This document shows positions 1 to 8,402 of a stretch of 64,000 nt of DNA, piece after piece; positions within the stretch are counted from its first letter, which is position 1; each line of letters starts with the position of its first letter. Below the pieces are notes generated by a model. That model did not search any database. It saw only the letters and a list, made by a program, of their open reading frames with translations, and was not told where the DNA came from. A program made the position numbers and the translations under genes. The DNA is from Escherichia coli (lineage in GTDB: Bacteria > Pseudomonadota > Gammaproteobacteria > Enterobacterales > Enterobacteriaceae), in assembly GCF_003790525.1 (NCBI RefSeq), contig NZ_CP033635.1; one strand, 5' to 3'.

Positions 1-175
<175 letters not shown>

Positions 176-550: not shown

Positions 551-3500
551 ATGAAAAAAAATTCTTTAAATGTGATTTTGGATACTGTTTTCTCGGCGAA
601 AAGCATCAATGGTGAGAAATCTCATTCTTTTATATCGTATAAATTAGTTAAAGCTGTAGAAAATTTAAGTGGATATGACTTGGATCTTTTCCTCAATCGT
701 GCGATAAACCATCCTAACTTCCCTAGCAATATGGATTTTTCCTTACGAACAGTTTTTACAATTGAACAATCTAACACTATTGAATTTAAAAATTTCATTT
801 CAGAATTGGTGTGGTACAAGCATATTTTCATACGATATAAAAAACACCTTAATGATATATTATCGGCAAAGGCAAGACTTGAGAAGTTAGTTCTTTTCGC
901 AACAGGTAGTGAATGTATAAAATATTTAGATGAAATAGAAAGCTCTTATGGAGTTAGTTTTTGGAGCATTGATGCTCGTCTCTTAATAAATAAAGTTTTG
1001 CTTAACGAAAGCAATGGGTTATATGTTAAATCAATTCTATCTAAAACCCACTATAAACTTACAGAGTTTATGTTACAGCAGCTATTATTTAAGCATCAAG
1101 TACATAACTTTGATGATTTTTCAAAGAACCTTATAAAAATACTAGATGATATGCGCACCACTCAAGATAATGGGTATGCTAGAAATTTAGCTGATGGTAT
1201 TTCATCCTTTTTAATACCTTTAGAGTTTGATAAAAATATAGATCTCAAAAATAGAACCTTAGCACCATTTACCAACCTTCCTTTAATAGATCAATTTATC
1301 ATATTCCAGAGAACTATAAGCGATTTACAACTTCATGGAAATGGTTTAAGAAATAGCGAGTTAAGCTTAATTGCAGAAATTAACAGCTTTATTAAAAATA
1401 ACTATCTCAACAATATTTTAGATGGAAGAGAGCGTAATATAGAGAATATTGATGAACACTATAAAAGTGTTATTCGACGTTATACTATAGGTGATTATAC
1501 TGGGTGTATTTCAGAAATAAATTCAGTTCGAACGCAGAAGACAATTTTGCCATTAATTGAAATATATGCAAAATCCCATGTGTATCTTGATAAGAAAATT
1601 TCAGACTCATGCATATTCAATAAATTAACAAACTGGCTTATAGCAATTATAAAATGCGACAGACGCGCTGGAAAATACATCGATGAATTTGAACTTTTAG
1701 CATCTAAGATATATTTCAATTCAAATTCATCCTCTCTATTCTTCACATTATATAATTTAATAAGTGATAACCATAATAAATTAAACATATCTCGTATAAA
1801 TCTAACCAAAAATGGTTCCTTTGTAACATCCCTTCATTTGAATATAACAATCAAGGAACTATGGACTGAACTTGGAATAAAAGAGAATGAGATACCAAAA
1901 TATCGATTATTTAAATTCAAAGACCTAGCAAATCTATCCTTTGATGAAATCAAAAAACACTACGAAGTATACAATGATAATGTAATAATTCGCTCTGAAT
2001 ATTTAAAAGATTATACTAACTTTTTATTAGAAAATGAAAAGTATGAATTATGCATCCAATTTATAGCTGAAAACTGCATCGGCAACCCCGCAAATTATTA
2101 CTACTTCCCAATCCGAAAAATAATTGATTTTGTAAAAGACAATATTTTTGACTATGCAAGCGTGGCCTTATCTATATTGATAGATATTTTTGTCAAAAGC
2201 ACATCAAACACTTCAAATGAGCTTCTTCTCGAAAGTTATGAGAGTTTAGTAGATATTTCAAATATTAATAGGCCATCTACCCATTATTGCTCTAAGCAAT
2301 TAACTCCATTAGAGCACTATTTCCTTAAGTTTATCTGTATACCTTCCGTGATGGATTCAGACCCTTCATTCACAGGCACGGACGACTTGAAGAAGGAAAG
2401 AATTGCTATTATAGATCTATTATTAAAAGAACACGATGATGCAGATTTATTGAAAGAGAAAGACGAAATTATAGATGAAATATCATTCGAAGAAATAAAA
2501 ACAAAATATGAGACAGGAAAAATATTTGTTGATATAGAAAATTTAAAACGGGCAAAGCTTGAAAGATACAGATATTATTTTGATGCACTTAAGGATTCGC
2601 TTATTCTCGGACTAGAACCACCTGAAGACTTTGCTTTAATTACAGACGATGGGAATATCACAGCCATTCCATCTGGCGATACAAACTCTATAATCCATGA
2701 ACTTCTAAAAGAACTAATCTCCGATTTTGTTAAAAATGAAAATTACGGTCTTGATAAATATTTGAGTGCAGATATACGGCATGGTGTTTTTGAAAATCAA
2801 CTCAGATCAAGTGCTGAAAAATCGCAATTAATAACTGATATGGATGGTACTGGACAGTATTCGAAAAGCAATTTAATTATTGAGACATATCCATTAATTA
2901 ACCCTATTATAAATAACGAAATAGGGACAGCAATAGCTGATTTCTCTTATCACTTTGACATTGAATTGGCTAAAGCCAATTCCTGGTTCAATGTCAAGAC
3001 AATGCTCATAAGTGAATCACAGCAAGGTATGATTGATTTCCTCATTTCTGTTGATATGTTTAATTCATTTAAAGCAGCAGTTTCAAATCAAGCATCTTTT
3101 GAGAAGTTTTTTGACGCTTGTATTAACTTCATGTGGGAAAGAACGTTCAGATGTTTGAATGATATTAAAGAGCGATTGCATTACGAATTTAAGAGGAATA
3201 TTTTAGATTTAATTGCCACTCTTAGGCATCAAATTGATATCTATAGAAGACGTAGTTCCATGAGAGAAATCCAGGAGAAAATTGACCTCTTGGCCGAAAG
3301 CATTAATAAAGAAATTGCAACAGTCTGCGATTGGTTAAATGTACTTGAGTATAACGAGGAGAAAATATATAAAATATCATCCGTGATGCAGGCATGTAGG
3401 AAAACTTTTTTTAATATACACCATTGTTCTGATGATGCTATCGTTTTTGATTCAATGTATCATGATGATGAACCAAAATTATCTTATAAAGAAGCCAAGC

Positions 3501-3826
3501 CTCTAATCACATCAATAATAACAGCGTTAAACAATGCTATGGCCTATGGTAATAAAAAAATCTTTATCAGTATTAAGCCTGAAGAAAAGTCATGGAAAAT
3601 AACCATCAGAAATTTGATAATTGAGACAAAGAACAGAACTACCAACCAAATTTTACAAGAGATTGATGATAAAATAAAACGAGGGGATAATAGTCTAAAT
3701 ATAAAAGAAGGCGGAGCTGGAATATATAAAATATATGATTTATTATGTTCATTACCGCAAAGATTTAATGTGAATCATTGCATCCAAAATAACGAATTCA
3801 TTTTAAATATTGAGATAAAGAAATGA
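551..3826 (+). CDS. Large sensor protein with C-terminal histidine-kinase-like ATPase core (Detocs DtcA-like); N-terminal ~850 aa of unknown, probably helical-repeat, sensing function
   Basis: 1091-aa ORF, strongly AT-rich. C-terminus carries an N-box-like motif (ITALNNAMAYGN, compare EnvZ NAARYGNG) and a G2-like GGAGIY motif; a candidate H-box (ERLHYEFKRNILDL) lies ~100 aa upstream. Stop overlaps next start (ATGA at 3823-3826). Confidence 0.6.
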   Translation: MKKNSLNVILDTVFSAKSINGEKSHSFISYKLVKAVENLSGYDLDLFLNRAINHPNFPSNMDFSLRTVFTIEQSNTIEFKNFISELVWYKHIFIRYKKHLNDILSAKARLEKLVLFATGSECIKYLDEIESSYGVSFWSIDARLLINKVLLNESNGLYVKSILSKTHYKLTEFMLQQLLFKHQVHNFDDFSKNLIKILDDMRTTQDNGYARNLADGISSFLIPLEFDKNIDLKNRTLAPFTNLPLIDQFIIFQRTISDLQLHGNGLRNSELSLIAEINSFIKNNYLNNILDGRERNIENIDEHYKSVIRRYTIGDYTGCISEINSVRTQKTILPLIEIYAKSHVYLDKKISDSCIFNKLTNWLIAIIKCDRRAGKYIDEFELLASKIYFNSNSSSLFFTLYNLISDNHNKLNISRINLTKNGSFVTSLHLNITIKELWTELGIKENEIPKYRLFKFKDLANLSFDEIKKHYEVYNDNVIIRSEYLKDYTNFLLENEKYELCIQFIAENCIGNPANYYYFPIRKIIDFVKDNIFDYASVALSILIDIFVKSTSNTSNELLLESYESLVDISNINRPSTHYCSKQLTPLEHYFLKFICIPSVMDSDPSFTGTDDLKKERIAIIDLLLKEHDDADLLKEKDEIIDEISFEEIKTKYETGKIFVDIENLKRAKLERYRYYFDALKDSLILGLEPPEDFALITDDGNITAIPSGDTNSIIHELLKELISDFVKNENYGLDKYLSADIRHGVFENQLRSSAEKSQLITDMDGTGQYSKSNLIIETYPLINPIINNEIGTAIADFSYHFDIELAKANSWFNVKTMLISESQQGMIDFLISVDMFNSFKAAVSNQASFEKFFDACINFMWERTFRCLNDIKERLHYEFKRNILDLIATLRHQIDIYRRRSSMREIQEKIDLLAESINKEIATVCDWLNVLEYNEEKIYKISSVMQACRKTFFNIHHCSDDAIVFDSMYHDDEPKLSYKEAKPLITSIITALNNAMAYGNKKIFISIKPEEKSWKITIRNLIIETKNRTTNQILQEIDDKIKRGDNSLNIKEGGAGIYKIYDLLCSLPQRFNVNHCIQNNEFILNIEIKK

Positions 3827-4272
3827 AAATTCTTCTTGTTGAGGATATTGAATATAAGCGTGATAAGGTGATCGGTTTACTAGAGTCTATTTCTGCCGAT
3901 GTATCAGTCGATGTAGCTAAATCTTATGTTTCGGCAGTAAATTCCGCAACCAGTAAAACTTATGATCTTATAATATTAGATATGAGCCTTCCCACTTACG
4001 ATAAGGGGCCTAATGAAAATGGAGGTCGCTTCAGAGTGTACGGAGGGAAAGATATTATTCGCAAGTTAATGAGAGGAAAAGAGCATCCAGTAGTTGTGGT
4101 TTTAACACAACATACAACTTTTGGTGAAATTGGTGAGCAAAAAAATACTGACACTCTATCACAAGAGTTGAATGCTTTAATGGGATCAAAATTTATAGGT
4201 ATTGTAAAATATGACTCAACTAAACCTCAATGGAAAGATGAAATAAAAAAAGTCGTACAGGATTTGTTATGA
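3823..4272 (+). CDS. Stand-alone receiver (REC) domain protein (Detocs DtcB-like)
   Basis: 149 aa; KILLVEDIE N-terminal acidic pocket, YDLIILDMSLP with candidate phospho-acceptor Asp53, downstream VVVLT. Start and stop are coupled by ATGA overlaps to both neighbours. Confidence 0.6.
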   Translation: MKILLVEDIEYKRDKVIGLLESISADVSVDVAKSYVSAVNSATSKTYDLIILDMSLPTYDKGPNENGGRFRVYGGKDIIRKLMRGKEHPVVVVLTQHTTFGEIGEQKNTDTLSQELNALMGSKFIGIVKYDSTKPQWKDEIKKVVQDLL

Positions 4273-5432
4273 TTAAAATATTAATAGTTGATGACAATAA
4301 ATCTAGAATTGAAAAGCTAAAATCTAGCTTAACTGAACTCATCACAAAAAACATGATAAGGATTGATGAGAAATATACAAGTGACGCCGCAAAAATCGCG
4401 CTCAAGTTAAATCAATATGATTATTTAATTCTTGATGTCTTTTTACCTAAAAAAGATAACTATAGCCCAGATGAAAGAAATGGATTAGGTCTTTTAAAAC
4501 AAATAAATTCAGATTCTAAATTTTACTCTCCAAAAAAAATAGTTGGCATAACTGCATATCTGAATGATATATCCAGATATGAATCCGAATTCAGAGAATA
4601 TGCTTCAATTATATTCGAGGCTCGACGTAATGATACTGGATGGCTTGAATCACTCAAAAAAATCATTGAAAAGGATGTTGAATCTCAAGTAAGTTATAAT
4701 CTCAATGAAAAAGATAGTGTTTTAATAACAGTACACGGTATAAGAACCTACGCACCTTGGCAAAATACCATAGAAGAAAAAATAACCAATATATCAAATA
4801 AATTTAACTATATAAAATTCAATTATGGTTTTCTAAATATTCTTTGTTTTTTATTCCCTCCGACTAGACATCTATTTGCAAGAAAAATAATCCAAGACAT
4901 ACGAATTACAGTGGAATCAAATAAGAATAAAAGAATTTATATTATTTGTCATAGTTTTGGTACCTACCTTGTATATTGTGCCTTAAGTAAACTGACACAT
5001 ACGGATGCAAAAATTGAATGTTTAATTTTTTCTGGTAGCGTATTAAAACGTACTACCTCATTGAAAACATTAAAGCAACATTGTAATGCAATAATAAATG
5101 ACTGTGCTGTAAGTGATTATATTTTATTACTATGTAAAATGTTAGTCATTGGCTTGGGCGATGCAGGCAGAAAAGGGTTTATTGAGCCAAATGATGGTGT
5201 TTTCATTAACCGCTATTTTAAAGGAGGACATTCAACTTACTTCGAAGATAAAGATTTCATAGAAGTGAACTGGCTTCCTTTAATTTTTGACAATAAAAAT
5301 ATCGCGTCACGAGATGAAAGAAAAAATCATATTTTTTCCGATGTCACCAATGCTTTGCAAAATATAATTGAATATTTAAAAATACCAATATGGTTATTTT
5401 TTTCTTTTTTATTGATAGCACTGGTATTATAA
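4269..5432 (+). CDS. Receiver (REC) domain fused to predicted alpha/beta serine hydrolase (lipase/esterase-like) with C-terminal transmembrane anchor (Detocs DtcC-like effector, non-PNP)
   Basis: 387 aa; N-terminal REC (KILIVDDN, YDYLILDVFLP Asp56). C-terminal part has VLITVHGIRT (oxyanion-hole-like HG), nucleophile elbow ICHSFG (Ser229, nt 4953-4955), later GGHSTYF (candidate catalytic His) and a hydrophobic tail IPIWLFFSFLLIALVL. Confidence 0.6.
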   Translation: MIKILIVDDNKSRIEKLKSSLTELITKNMIRIDEKYTSDAAKIALKLNQYDYLILDVFLPKKDNYSPDERNGLGLLKQINSDSKFYSPKKIVGITAYLNDISRYESEFREYASIIFEARRNDTGWLESLKKIIEKDVESQVSYNLNEKDSVLITVHGIRTYAPWQNTIEEKITNISNKFNYIKFNYGFLNILCFLFPPTRHLFARKIIQDIRITVESNKNKRIYIICHSFGTYLVYCALSKLTHTDAKIECLIFSGSVLKRTTSLKTLKQHCNAIINDCAVSDYILLLCKMLVIGLGDAGRKGFIEPNDGVFINRYFKGGHSTYFEDKDFIEVNWLPLIFDNKNIASRDERKNHIFSDVTNALQNIIEYLKIPIWLFFSFLLIALVL

Positions 5433-5458
5433 TATCACTGCACATTAAAAATCATATT

Positions 5459-5484
5459 GGAGCTTCCCTCATAAAGCTCCAATA
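5459..5484 (+). terminator. Candidate stem-loop downstream of the three-gene operon
   Basis: GGAGCTT-ccctcat-AAGCTCC inverted repeat 27 nt after the stop at 5432; no clear T-run. Confidence 0.3.
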
Positions 5485-5911
5485 TAAAACACCATCATTT
5501 CAATAGTACCTGCAGCTAATTAAAACTAGTCAACCGAAAAAATTAATCACTTTAAACTTTAGTATGCACTTATACTTTCTTAATAATAGAAAAACACTTA
5601 CAAATAAATTAATCATGTCAATCTCCGTAACTACAACCTCGGAAAGTATGTAAACAGGAATCATTACTGAAAAAAACACGATTTCAGCAGAATTCTAGAA
5701 ATATCCTGTGCTGCTGCCGATACCAACTTTCGTATATACTACCCTTCACGTTCCTTCTCGTTTTTATAAAACTATTCATTTATAACTATCAATAGGCATC
5801 ATAACCAATGTAAGTGTAAGTACTGGTGAACGAGTGTCAATGGAGTTAAAAGTATCACTTCATCCTGCTAAATATAAGTTATCCTACGTTTTAATATACT
5901 AGAACTCAAAA

Positions 5912-6877
5912 TTAGAATGGTTTGTTAATATTAATAGATTTACCATTGATATCTTTTGACACCTTAAAAAAATCTATACCTTTTATCCACTGACATAACT
6001 GTTGTAGTGTTTCCATTGCCTGTTCTAACTCATTTTTTTCAATTCTAACGCCCCCATGATGGCTACAGGAATTTAATAATTCCTGAGCTAGAGTGATGTC
6101 ATTCTTCAGCTTATTAGGCAGACCGAGAAAATTAATCACCCTCGACAAACTCCCAAGCATTAACTTTTGATAGTCTTCTTCAAATTCCTTTTCAGCCCTA
6201 ATATTTACTAACATCAAAACATACTCAAGATAACGCCGTGCTGTATTTCCCTTTTCTTGTAACGCATCTCTATCATACTCTTTAATATCACTCAATTCCT
6301 GTAGTAGAAAATCAAACTTAGCTATTGCCAAGTTAAGATTGATGTTATGCATTAGCAATTCGGATGCATGATTGCTAACAGGTACACGATTTGGTGGACG
6401 TATCATTATAGCCGTCGTGTAACAATTTATATTTGGTATCTGTATAAATTCCTCACCGGAACGCGTAACACGTTGAACTTCTACCATATAGTGGCCAAAT
6501 TTATCAATCTCATATGACCGACAACGAGCAGAATATAATTTATTTAGCTTTTTCCTGTCTTGATAATATGATTTTATTAATACAAAAAATGCTCTTTCGT
6601 GCTCAATAATTAAAATAGTCTCTATTGAAGCATGGTACAACCATCCGTTATTCCATGTTAATTCAAGCTGTCTATTTCCATCTTTAAAATCAATTTTAGT
6701 TATACGATCCCAACTTCCTCTATCAATAAAATCGACAATATTGCGCCCAAATCCTTGATAGTTATTTTTAACAATGTGCAATAGTACTGCCTTTATTTTA
6801 TCCCAATCATGAATTTCTTTTTCATATTCACCATTTAATATATTCGTTAAATCACTGTGAAAATTTTCATATGTCAT
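5912..6877 (-). CDS. Hypothetical protein (island cargo, no recognisable motifs)
   Basis: 321-aa ORF with ATG at 6877, AT-rich like the neighbouring operon, directly downstream of the integrase on the same strand. Confidence 0.55.
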   Translation of the reverse strand: MTYENFHSDLTNILNGEYEKEIHDWDKIKAVLLHIVKNNYQGFGRNIVDFIDRGSWDRITKIDFKDGNRQLELTWNNGWLYHASIETILIIEHERAFFVLIKSYYQDRKKLNKLYSARCRSYEIDKFGHYMVEVQRVTRSGEEFIQIPNINCYTTAIMIRPPNRVPVSNHASELLMHNINLNLAIAKFDFLLQELSDIKEYDRDALQEKGNTARRYLEYVLMLVNIRAEKEFEEDYQKLMLGSLSRVINFLGLPNKLKNDITLAQELLNSCSHHGGVRIEKNELEQAMETLQQLCQWIKGIDFFKVSKDINGKSININKPF

Positions 6878-6978: not shown

Positions 6979-8163
6979 TCAATTGACATCATTACCAATT
7001 CTTCCAATGCAATCAGCATACCACTGCATCATCTCCCTCCGCCCTTCCAGATACAAAGCATGGTTGTACGTCCCACGAATCGCATTCTTATCGACATGCG
7101 CAAGCTGGGTTTCAATCCATGCCGTATTGAACCCTTCCTCGTGCAAAATCGTACTCATCGTGTGACGGAAACCATGCCCCGTTACCTTCCCCGTATACCC
7201 AATCCGTTTGAATACCTGATTCATACTCGCTTCACTCATCGTCTTGCGGGGATCATTTCGCCCTGGGAATACCAGTGGATATTGCCCAGATATCACCTTG
7301 AGTTGTTGTACGATTTCCAGCGCTTGGGTAGATAGGGGGACAAGGTGAGGCCGTTTCATCTTCATACGCTCTGCAGGTATTTCCCACACTGCTTTTTCAA
7401 GATCAAACTCACTCCAGAAAGCACCTCGTAGCTCGCCAGTACGAACTCCTGTAAGGATCAGCAGACGAGCGGCAAGAACAACTAACGGGCTTCCTGTGTA
7501 GCCTGCGAGAGCTTTAAAGAAGTCTGGTAACTCCTCAACAGTAAGGAAGGGATAATGCTTCGATTCATGCCCTGACATTGCGCTGGTTAGATCCGCTGCA
7601 GGATTGTATTCCGCACGACCGGTAACGATGGCGTAACGAAAGACTTCACTGCAACGCTGGCGAACCTTCTTGGCCTTCTCTGTCGCGCCACGGCTTTCCA
7701 TTCGACGTAGCACATTCAGCAGAACCAAAGGCTTGATGTCATTCACCGGCAGTTGGCCAATATAAGGGAAAATATCTTTATTGAAGGCTTCGATAATGTC
7801 GGAGGCATAACCTTCTGACCACCGGCTCACCTTCGTTCCGTGCCATTCAAGTGCCACAGCCTGAAACGTATTATTGAGCTGCACATCGCGAACCAACTTT
7901 TCTTCTTTCTTGGCAAACGATGGGTCGATACCTTCGGCCAGCTTTTTCTTGGCTTCATCACGCAGTGCCCTCGCTTGTGCAAGGGACACTGCCGGATAGA
8001 CACCAAAAGCCATACGTTTCTCTTTTCCATTGAAGCGATATTTCATCCGCCAGTATCGAGAACCAGAAGGAACAACTTCAAGATACAAGCCTGCACCATC
8101 TGCTAGCTTGTAGGCTTTCTCTCTGGGTTTAGCAGCATCTACCTGTCGAGCATTAAGCTTCAT
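6979..8163 (-). CDS. Site-specific tyrosine integrase, P4-like family
   Basis: N-terminus MKLNARQVDAAKPREKAYKLADGAGLYLEVVPSGSRYWRMKYRFNGKEKRMAFGVYP is typical of P4-type integrases; C-terminus has GHGFRHT and LAHVDKN...RGTYNH catalytic-region motifs. Start placed at ATG 8163 (AGGGAG 9 nt upstream); lies 164 bp from the tRNA 3' end. Confidence 0.9.
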   Translation of the reverse strand: MKLNARQVDAAKPREKAYKLADGAGLYLEVVPSGSRYWRMKYRFNGKEKRMAFGVYPAVSLAQARALRDEAKKKLAEGIDPSFAKKEEKLVRDVQLNNTFQAVALEWHGTKVSRWSEGYASDIIEAFNKDIFPYIGQLPVNDIKPLVLLNVLRRMESRGATEKAKKVRQRCSEVFRYAIVTGRAEYNPAADLTSAMSGHESKHYPFLTVEELPDFFKALAGYTGSPLVVLAARLLILTGVRTGELRGAFWSEFDLEKAVWEIPAERMKMKRPHLVPLSTQALEIVQQLKVISGQYPLVFPGRNDPRKTMSEASMNQVFKRIGYTGKVTGHGFRHTMSTILHEEGFNTAWIETQLAHVDKNAIRGTYNHALYLEGRREMMQWYADCIGRIGNDVN

Positions 8164-8326: not shown

Positions 8327-8402
8327 TGGTGCCGATAATAGGAGTCGAACCTACGACCTTCGCATTACGAATGCGCTGCTCTACCAACTGAGCTATATCG
8401 GC
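8327..8402 (-). tRNA. thrW: tRNA-Thr (anticodon CGU)
   Basis: 76-nt minus-strand sequence GCCGATATAGCTCAGTTGGTAGAGCAGCGCATTCGTAATGCGAAGGTCGTAGGTTCGACTCCTATTATCGGCACCA folds as a cloverleaf with anticodon loop TTCGTAA and CCA end. Confidence 0.9.

Follow-up and report, generated by a model that had tools for sequence, protein, structure and literature searches.

A probable hydrolase-type Detocs system in a thrW island of Escherichia coli with a predicted membrane-held serine hydrolase as effector

The three-gene operon

The 64,000-nucleotide stretch of Escherichia coli DNA analysed here (contig NZ_CP033635.1 of assembly GCF_003790525.1, referred to as the window) carries a three-gene operon whose last gene, dtcC (WP_000590615.1), very probably encodes the effector of a hydrolase-type Detocs system. 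Detocs was defined by the presence of a TPR histidine kinase (DtcA), a buffer receiver (DtcB) and a protein consisting of a receiver and an effector (DtcC) (Rousset et al. 2023, bioRxiv 10.1101/2023.01.24.525353). The three open reading frames (ORFs) within 551-5432 are all located on the plus strand and all intact (1091, 149 and 387 amino acids), and each downstream start codon overlaps the preceding stop codon as ATGA, both at dtcA/dtcB and at dtcB/dtcC. In RefSeq, the products are named hypothetical protein, response regulator and alpha/beta hydrolase, respectively. The features of the operon are listed below; fractions refer to the 45 aligned DtcC homologues and secondary structure elements to the structure model, both described in the next section.

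551-3826, + strand: dtcA, 1091-residue sensor histidine kinase, cytoplasmic (PADLOC PDC-M60A, E 4.5e-55 over residues 491-1061)
3823-4272, + strand: dtcB, 149-residue stand-alone receiver, proposed phosphate 'buffer' (PADLOC PDC-M60B, E 2e-35)
4269-5432, + strand: dtcC, 387 residues, receiver, predicted alpha/beta hydrolase and C-terminal hydrophobic helix (BLASTP, RefSeq)
4269-4703, + strand: DtcC receiver and linker helix, residues 1-145
4707-5333, + strand: predicted minimal lidless alpha/beta-hydrolase domain of DtcC, residues ~147-355
4734-4739, + strand: H156-G157, predicted oxyanion-hole 'HG' motif (45/45), directly after strand 150-156
4953-4955, + strand: Ser229 (AGT), predicted nucleophile, in the elbow between strand 222-228 and helix 230-240
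5115-5117, + strand: Asp283, predicted catalytic acid (45/45), in the loop after strand 275-280, motif N277-x-C279-x3-D283
5229-5231, + strand: His321, predicted catalytic base (45/45), in G319-G320-H321, in the loop after strand 312-317
5382-5429, + strand: C-terminal hydrophobic tail of DtcC, residues 372-387, putative tail anchor at the end of predicted helix 355-386

The gene order is that of Detocs, i.e. a large sensor kinase followed by a stand-alone receiver and a receiver-effector. Besides the PADLOC matches of the first two products, the third one matched PDC-M60C (E 9.9e-23), and this match was confined to the receiver (residues 2-149). The order of genes for a kinase, a receiver of ~150 residues and a receiver-hydrolase of ~390 residues recurs in the yjcB hotspot of E. 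coli, in V. cholerae and in Paraburkholderia (loci L002, L005 and L007). Since the flanking genes differ at each locus with the conserved trio, the unit consists of three genes, and the ORF at 5912-6877 of the window is excluded from it. In Paraburkholderia, the Detocs-hydrolase genes are followed by a gene for a 748-residue AAA_13 ATPase (L007 7905-10151), a defence-like neighbour.

The predicted phosphorylated histidine of DtcA is H744 (nucleotides 2780-2782), within R743-H744. This H box, N995 and E1053-G-G-x-G-x-Y-K1060 (ATP-binding boxes) were invariant in an alignment of four sequences (A2). DtcA was alignable over ~1060 residues with the 1102-residue DtcA encoded upstream of P0095, another DtcC homologue from E. 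coli (BLASTP E 1e-46, 23% identity). No transmembrane (TM)-like segment was found in DtcA (KD19 maximum 1.5) or in DtcB. DtcA had no match in Pfam (library version used), NCBIfam or PHROGs, and the TPR part named in the defining paper gave no repeat-family match in Pfam within the N-terminal ~700 residues. Precomputed annotations of DtcA homologues give the newer family PF27260 (Y4jQ). The acceptor of DtcB is Asp53 (nucleotides 3979-3981) in LIILDMSLP, which aligns with the Asp of DtcB from the published Enterobacter cloacae JD6301 system. NCBIfam matches to CheB fell only on the DtcB receiver.

Receiver and hydrolase domains of DtcC

The database search with DtcC yielded 159 relatives, nearly all of them 385-400 residues long and matching over the full length, the closest being a Klebsiella quasipneumoniae protein which is 98% identical. 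Conservation was evaluated in an alignment of 45 relatives, which share 30-98% identity with the query, to which the published E. cloacae protein was added; the mean column identity was 42%. The receiver has the acceptor Asp56 (nucleotides 4434-4436), the acidic pair D8/D9 and T95, and D51, D56 and T95 were invariant in all 45 homologues. In both the DtcC and DtcB receivers, the acidic pair, acceptor Asp and Thr are retained, but there is no conserved Lys at the end of β5 (position K109 of CheY); DtcC has at this position E117-A118 in most homologues, followed by the invariant W125. This atypical receiver signature may bear on the readout of phosphorylation.

In the rest of the protein, H156, G157, H228, S229, G231, N277, C279, D283, G319, G320 and H321 were present in all 45 homologues, and the motif around the nucleophile reads [A/C/S/G]-H-S-[F/Y]-G across the family. 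The motifs W164-Q165, N277-x-C279, A299-G-R-x-G-F304 and N314-R315 are also invariant and specific to the family. Such a set of residues conserved across diverse homologues argues that the motif pattern did not arise by chance. S229 and the other Ser, Asp, His and HG residues were also invariant in relatives with other architectures (alignment A3). The persistence of the catalytic set at 30-40% overall identity, including proteins which are not parts of Detocs, indicates selection for catalysis. The role of Asp283 as the catalytic acid is suggested by its conservation and its position in the model; residue 278, which is D or E in all sequences, is an alternative candidate.

The AlphaFold2 model of DtcC built on the 45-homologue alignment (pLDDT 88.9, pTM 0.69) displays a receiver with five strands (2-7, 30-35, 52-56, 90-95 and 114-117), a linker helix (124-146), an alpha/beta domain and a continuous helix (355-386) which ends in the hydrophobic tail. 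A second model, restricted to residues 146-387 and built on an alignment which included other architectures, reached pLDDT 91.5 and pTM 0.90. A Foldseek search with this domain-only model returned alpha/beta hydrolases only (E ~1e-4, template-modelling scores 0.4-0.55, identity 8-15%). Most of the matches were lipid or acyl hydrolases: type II and palmitoyl-protein thioesterases (PPT1/2), human and mycobacterial monoglyceride lipases (MGLL), a lipase of A. fulgidus, RavL and PlaB of Legionella, TesA of M. tuberculosis and LipA of B. subtilis (1i6w). In the model, the order of strands and loops bearing Ser, the acid and His, together with the oxyanion motif after the central strand, corresponds to the canonical alpha/beta-hydrolase positions. 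According to these models, the C-terminal module is an alpha/beta-hydrolase fold, and we consider the fold prediction sound.

The family to which the domain belongs is uncurated, and its nearest relatives are hydrolases of acyl esters and thioesters. Pfam matches of the hydrolase part of DtcC were all below the threshold (DUF900 0.0025, Lipase_3 0.022, LIDHydrolase 0.022, DUF676 0.03 and Tle3 0.76). Over the 45 homologues, Pfam matches were obtained to Abhydrolase_1 (10), LIDHydrolase (9), Lipase_3 (6) and Abhydrolase_8 (6), the first three passing E 1e-3, and scattered weak matches of family members also to DUF676, PGAP1 and Palm_thioest. The profile search with alignment A1 against PDB sequences gave matches to receivers plus two marginal hydrolases (7x2p, 0.025; 3qit, 0.036), which means that there is no close relative with a solved structure. 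Taken together, the sequence pattern and the models predict with good confidence that DtcC is a catalytically competent serine hydrolase.

The preliminary description of this DNA, made without database searches, had proposed a membrane-anchored serine hydrolase as the effector in place of the usual PNP nucleosidase. Both the ORF and the four motifs on which it relied are exactly where it had placed them: VLITVHGIRT at residues 151-160, ICHSFGTY at 226-233, GGHSTYF at 319-325 and the hydrophobic stretch at the C-terminus. The fold it expected is the one supported by the structure model and Foldseek, and its nucleophile Ser229 and candidate catalytic His (H321) are the residues now found invariant. 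A PNP effector was ruled out, as the description had claimed, on the grounds that PDC-M60C matched residues 2-149 only, that there was no PNP match in Pfam and that a DtcC of the PNP type aligned with residues 1-92 only. Because the alignment is limited to these residues, the effector module has evidently been swapped. A patatin-like effector was also considered and rejected, as no match to it was obtained.

Hydrophobic tail and the wider family of hydrolase-helix proteins

The tail IPIWLFFSFLLIALVL, corresponding to residues 372-387, forms the C-terminus of DtcC and contributes 16 hydrophobic residues to the predicted helix 355-386 (KD19 = 2.2). The hydrophobic stretch noticed in the preliminary description is retained in all 45 homologues, where it comprises 12-34 residues after the conserved Lys (K371 in DtcC); in sequence, however, this tail varies.

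When residues 147-387 were searched with phmmer against 1.84 billion representatives, 2594 relatives were obtained at E<=1e-3; of these, 1404 reached E<=1e-10 and 120 reached E<=1e-30. Among the best-scoring ones, ~40% are of the Detocs size (321-420 residues) and a similar share are proteins of 430-1316 residues with an N-terminal hydrolase. These long relatives, which number in the hundreds (32-40% identity, with the catalytic invariants kept), consist of the hydrolase, a conserved 'AEPxK', the hydrophobic helix, a coiled coil and then further domains, which are either WD40 β-propellers (P0145; TolB-like in P0157) or OmpA/Pal-like (P0160). The cassette was found in P0124, P0137, P0145, P0157, P0160, P0169, P0172 and P0223, and at 1495-2802 of locus L011. 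In the longer relatives, the helix equivalent to the DtcC tail is internal; the OmpA/Pal-like domain of P0160, for instance, comes after it. The internal position of the helix, with domains beyond it, supports the view that it is a true membrane element. The gene of P0160 lies in an integrase/P4-like hotspot, with genes for a phage integrase, a YafO toxin and P4-type replication as neighbours. The hydrolase-helix module is not covered by any family in PADLOC, NCBIfam or Pfam.

These results suggest that the hydrolase and the helix form a membrane-tethered cassette which has been reused widely. A more far-reaching idea is that the cassette is not specific to Detocs and defines a large uncurated family of serine hydrolases which are tethered to the membrane and act as 'executioner' modules; this is possible, and we regard it as rather unlikely. 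If it is true, the long relatives could each act alone, as single-gene systems of defence or signalling in which the cytoplasmic hydrolase responds across the membrane to a sensor that is extracytoplasmic or made of repeats, and the substrate common to the cassette family could be more specific than bulk phospholipid.

Genomic island carrying the operon

The window segment 400-7000 is identical (100%) to positions 308042-314642 of the E. coli SMS-3-5 chromosome (NC_010498.1). Of the 5426 complete E. coli genomes, only 16 contain the 6.6-kb stretch, which is chromosomal in each of them and essentially 100% identical among the 16. The guanine plus cytosine (GC) content is 30.5% across the operon block vs 53% in the chromosome to the right. 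The locus is a low-GC island integrated at a tRNA-Thr gene (thrW island), and proA, proB and phoE adjoin its integrase/tRNA-Thr end. Further features near the operon are the following:

5452-5487, unstranded: hairpin with a 15-bp stem, 20 nucleotides past the dtcC stop, with a T-run on the minus strand only
6979-8163, - strand: tyrosine integrase of the island (RefSeq annotation; GC 0.49 vs 0.305 in the operon)
8327-8402, - strand: tRNA-Thr(CGU), the integration site of the island (ARAGORN, RefSeq)

The hairpin may be a candidate terminator for the Detocs operon and for opposing transcription; the support for terminators is weak, since the count of hairpin-type sites does not exceed that in shuffled controls. 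Between the Detocs operon and the integrase gene lies a 321-residue ORF (5912-6877, - strand; WP_000220589.1, hypothetical protein; GC 32.6%), which gave no significant match in Pfam, PADLOC or NCBIfam and a marginal one only in PHROGs (phrog_622, E 0.002). Its assignment as a fourth Detocs gene was rejected because the downstream genes differ at every other locus compared. It may be separate island cargo, possibly another defence gene.

The island extends leftward past window positions 1-86 (locus L001, 2072-5687), where genes for an IS3 transposase, an antirestriction protein, a JAB/RadC-like protein and DUF987 were found together with a DUF905 pseudogene and the toxin-antitoxin pair CbtA/YeeU. 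Such cargo is typical for thrW (CP4-6-like) islands. Much of the window (positions ~20500-50000; NC_010498.1 265100-294470) is occupied by a complete second lateral flagellar gene cluster of the Flag-2 type (lafA, lafU, fliD/S/K, flgB-L, fliG-J, motA and the gene of a FliA-like sigma factor), which encloses a gene for a large glycosyltransferase. The segment from this cluster to the proBA/thrW end of the island contains dinB-yafNOP, in which yafO is frameshifted, and an rtcB-prfH pair.

Proposed mechanism and alternative explanations

We propose that the locus is a hydrolase-type Detocs system in which a receiver-switched, membrane-held hydrolase acts on an acyl ester or thioester and thereby aborts infection, an account which we find likely as a whole. 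By analogy with the published PNP-type system, cytoplasmic DtcA would sense infection, autophosphorylate at His744 and pass the phosphate to Asp56 of DtcC, and DtcB (Asp53) would absorb stray phosphate. The C-terminal hydrophobic helix would keep DtcC on the cytoplasmic side of the inner membrane; the receiver and the hydrolase are placed in the cytoplasm since DtcC lacks a signal peptide and both domains must meet a kinase which is cytoplasmic. Phosphorylation of the receiver would then switch on the lidless hydrolase with its predicted triad Ser229-Asp283-His321 and oxyanion hole H156-G157, possibly via dimerization or exposure of the active site, for which CheB, an esterase likewise controlled by a receiver, would be a parallel. 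The substrate would be an acyl ester or thioester at the membrane, probably phospholipid, and active DtcC would damage the membrane so that the infection is aborted. That the substrate of DtcC is a lipid is a tentative proposal, which we put slightly short of an even chance.

Several observations weigh against this account. Only 16 residues follow K371, which is short for a span of the bilayer, and the pTM of 0.69 for the full-length model makes the arrangement of the domains uncertain. The structural neighbours of the hydrolase mix thioesterases, carboxylesterases and MenH with lipases at modest scores, and no Pfam, NCBIfam or PADLOC family covers the domain, PHROGs being also without a match. 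The system in the window, known here from its sequence, is only 32% identical to the homologous system tested. For the latter (E. cloacae JD6301), defence was shown and no catalytic-site mutant was found in the literature; the literature search also found no paper testing catalysis, substrate or killing mode of a hydrolase-type DtcC.

The main rival explanation accepts DtcC as an active serine hydrolase and assumes that it cleaves not bulk phospholipid but a specific target, located at the membrane or in its vicinity. Working as a thioesterase, esterase or amidase, it could attack, for example, acyl-ACP, acyl-CoA, lipoproteins, phage components or lipid-linked precursors of the cell wall. The outcome would then be growth arrest or blocked phage maturation instead of membrane lysis. 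This explanation is supported by the thioesterases and carboxylesterases among the structural neighbours and by the invariant Arg-rich motifs peculiar to the family. However, the predicted membrane tethering, conserved family-wide, most simply fits a membrane substrate; with its [A/C/S/G]-H-S-x-G elbow and small size, the domain is reminiscent of minimal lipases, B. subtilis LipA (1i6w) being one of its matches; and nothing points to any particular alternative substrate. We judge a specific target to be possible but improbable on balance.

Much less probable is a direct toxicity of the C-terminal helix, with phosphorylation-driven oligomerization of DtcC perturbing or permeabilizing the membrane and the hydrolase having an accessory or regulatory role. 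A '1TM' effector is listed for Detocs and 'transmembrane-spanning domains' are named as effectors (Rousset et al. 2023, 10.1101/2023.01.24.525353), and the hydrophobicity of the tail is conserved in all homologues. On the other hand, a lone helix of 16 residues is poorly suited to forming pores, the tail varies in sequence, and the Ser, Asp, His and HG residues invariant at 30-40% identity, also outside Detocs, speak for selection for catalysis.

That the locus is an inactive remnant or a housekeeping two-component system with an enzymatic output is hardly credible: Pfam and NCBIfam miss DtcA, an IS3 element and pseudogenes are near, and defence by the system of this particular strain rests on sequence comparison, but the three ORFs are intact and translationally coupled, the catalytic and phosphorelay residues are all kept, the 6.6 kb are essentially 100% identical in 16 genomes within a low-GC, integrase-borne island, and a homologous system has been proven defensive.

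The receiver-switched, membrane-held hydrolase is the preferred explanation, and the mapped residues D56, H156/G157, S229, D283 and H321 and the tail 372-387 represent a ready list of mutants. The three genes can now be labelled as a hydrolase-type Detocs anti-phage system, present with the thrW island in ~0.3% of complete E. coli genomes. The value of the locus lies mainly in annotation; what remains of interest is the chemistry of the effector and the wider cassette family. The spread of the cassette in proteins of the WD40 and OmpA types suggests that the chemistry, once solved, would explain many uncharacterized proteins.

Comparison with known systems

The preliminary description is borne out on all points open to computation and errs only as regards novelty. 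The exchange of the effector has already been published under a name of its own and validated by experiment in a homologue, which makes the locus an ordinary member of the group. The 'Detocs-hydrolase' was named and the E. cloacae JD6301 system was found to protect E. coli (Table S1, Fig. S8C), and ~35 'Hydrolase + TM' Detocs systems are listed in Table S5, including those of E. coli WCE035, O76 and G177 and of Klebsiella quasipneumoniae FI_HV_2014 (Rousset et al. 2023, 10.1101/2023.01.24.525353). A literature search for earlier bioinformatic predictions of the hydrolase effector found nothing relevant. Nowhere is it clearer than in Detocs that a phosphorelay can drive interchangeable cell-killing modules, of which the hydrolase with a TM segment ranks second in frequency.

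The JD6301 system has the same gene order as that in the window, and its DtcC is likewise composed of a receiver, an alpha/beta hydrolase and a TM segment (386 vs 387 residues). The two DtcC proteins are similar end to end (BLASTP, 32% identity, E 9e-56), with the THG/HG, SHSFGTY and GGHS motifs of JD6301 in register with those of the window protein, and the DtcB proteins are also 32% identical (E 1e-19). The systems differ in host and island, the one studied here being located in the thrW island of E. coli strains of the SMS-3-5 type, and about one third of the residues are common.

In the canonical system of V. alginolyticus, defence depends on the His of the kinase, the Asp of the receiver and the active site of PNP, and PNP is carried by 80% of Detocs systems, the remainder having other effectors (Rousset et al. 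2023, 10.1101/2023.01.24.525353). The logic of kinase, buffer receiver and receiver-effector is common to the V. alginolyticus UCD-32C system, with its PNP/Cap17-like ATP nucleosidase, and to that in the window; the DtcC receivers align over residues 1-92 of the window protein (E 2e-5). The effectors are unrelated, N-glycosidic cleavage of ATP and dATP standing against predicted hydrolysis of membrane acyl esters by the window DtcC.

A second hydrolase-type Detocs of E. coli (P0095, loci L002-L004) is located in the yjcB-ssb island and has the same architecture (1102, 152 and 390 residues). Its DtcC is 34% identical to that of the window, and it occupies another chromosomal hotspot and belongs to a divergent lineage. 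E. coli carries at least two lineages of hydrolase-type Detocs. The Detocs reported in the yjcB-ssb island in an E. coli population study (ISME J 2024, PMC11728103) corresponds to the P0095 lineage. The yjcB-ssb Detocs is preceded by three unannotated genes (519, 677 and 139 residues).

The minimal hydrolases of solved structure, namely YdeN (1uxo) and LipA (1i6w) of B. subtilis, the P. fluorescens carboxylesterase (1auo), the rumen lipase Lip_vut1 (6nkc), human monoglyceride lipase (3hju) and palmitoyl-protein thioesterases (1pja, 1eh5), have the fold and the catalytic order of the window DtcC and a small lidless core. The first Gly of the nucleophile elbow is replaced in LipA-type lipases, as it is in the DtcC family. 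In contrast to DtcC, the solved enzymes, which are 8-15% identical to it, possess neither a receiver nor a C-terminal membrane helix, and as far as the matches show, W164-Q165, N277-x-C279, A299-G-R-x-G-F304 and N314-R315 are absent from them.

The switching proposed for DtcC resembles that of CheB, in which a receiver is fused to a Ser-His-Asp methylesterase and the activity is released by phosphorylation of the Asp. CheB has another catalytic fold, its substrates are glutamyl methyl esters of chemoreceptors, and it is a soluble protein which does not serve in defence. There is no homology beyond the receiver. As an analogy, CheB provides the best precedent for the switching of DtcC.

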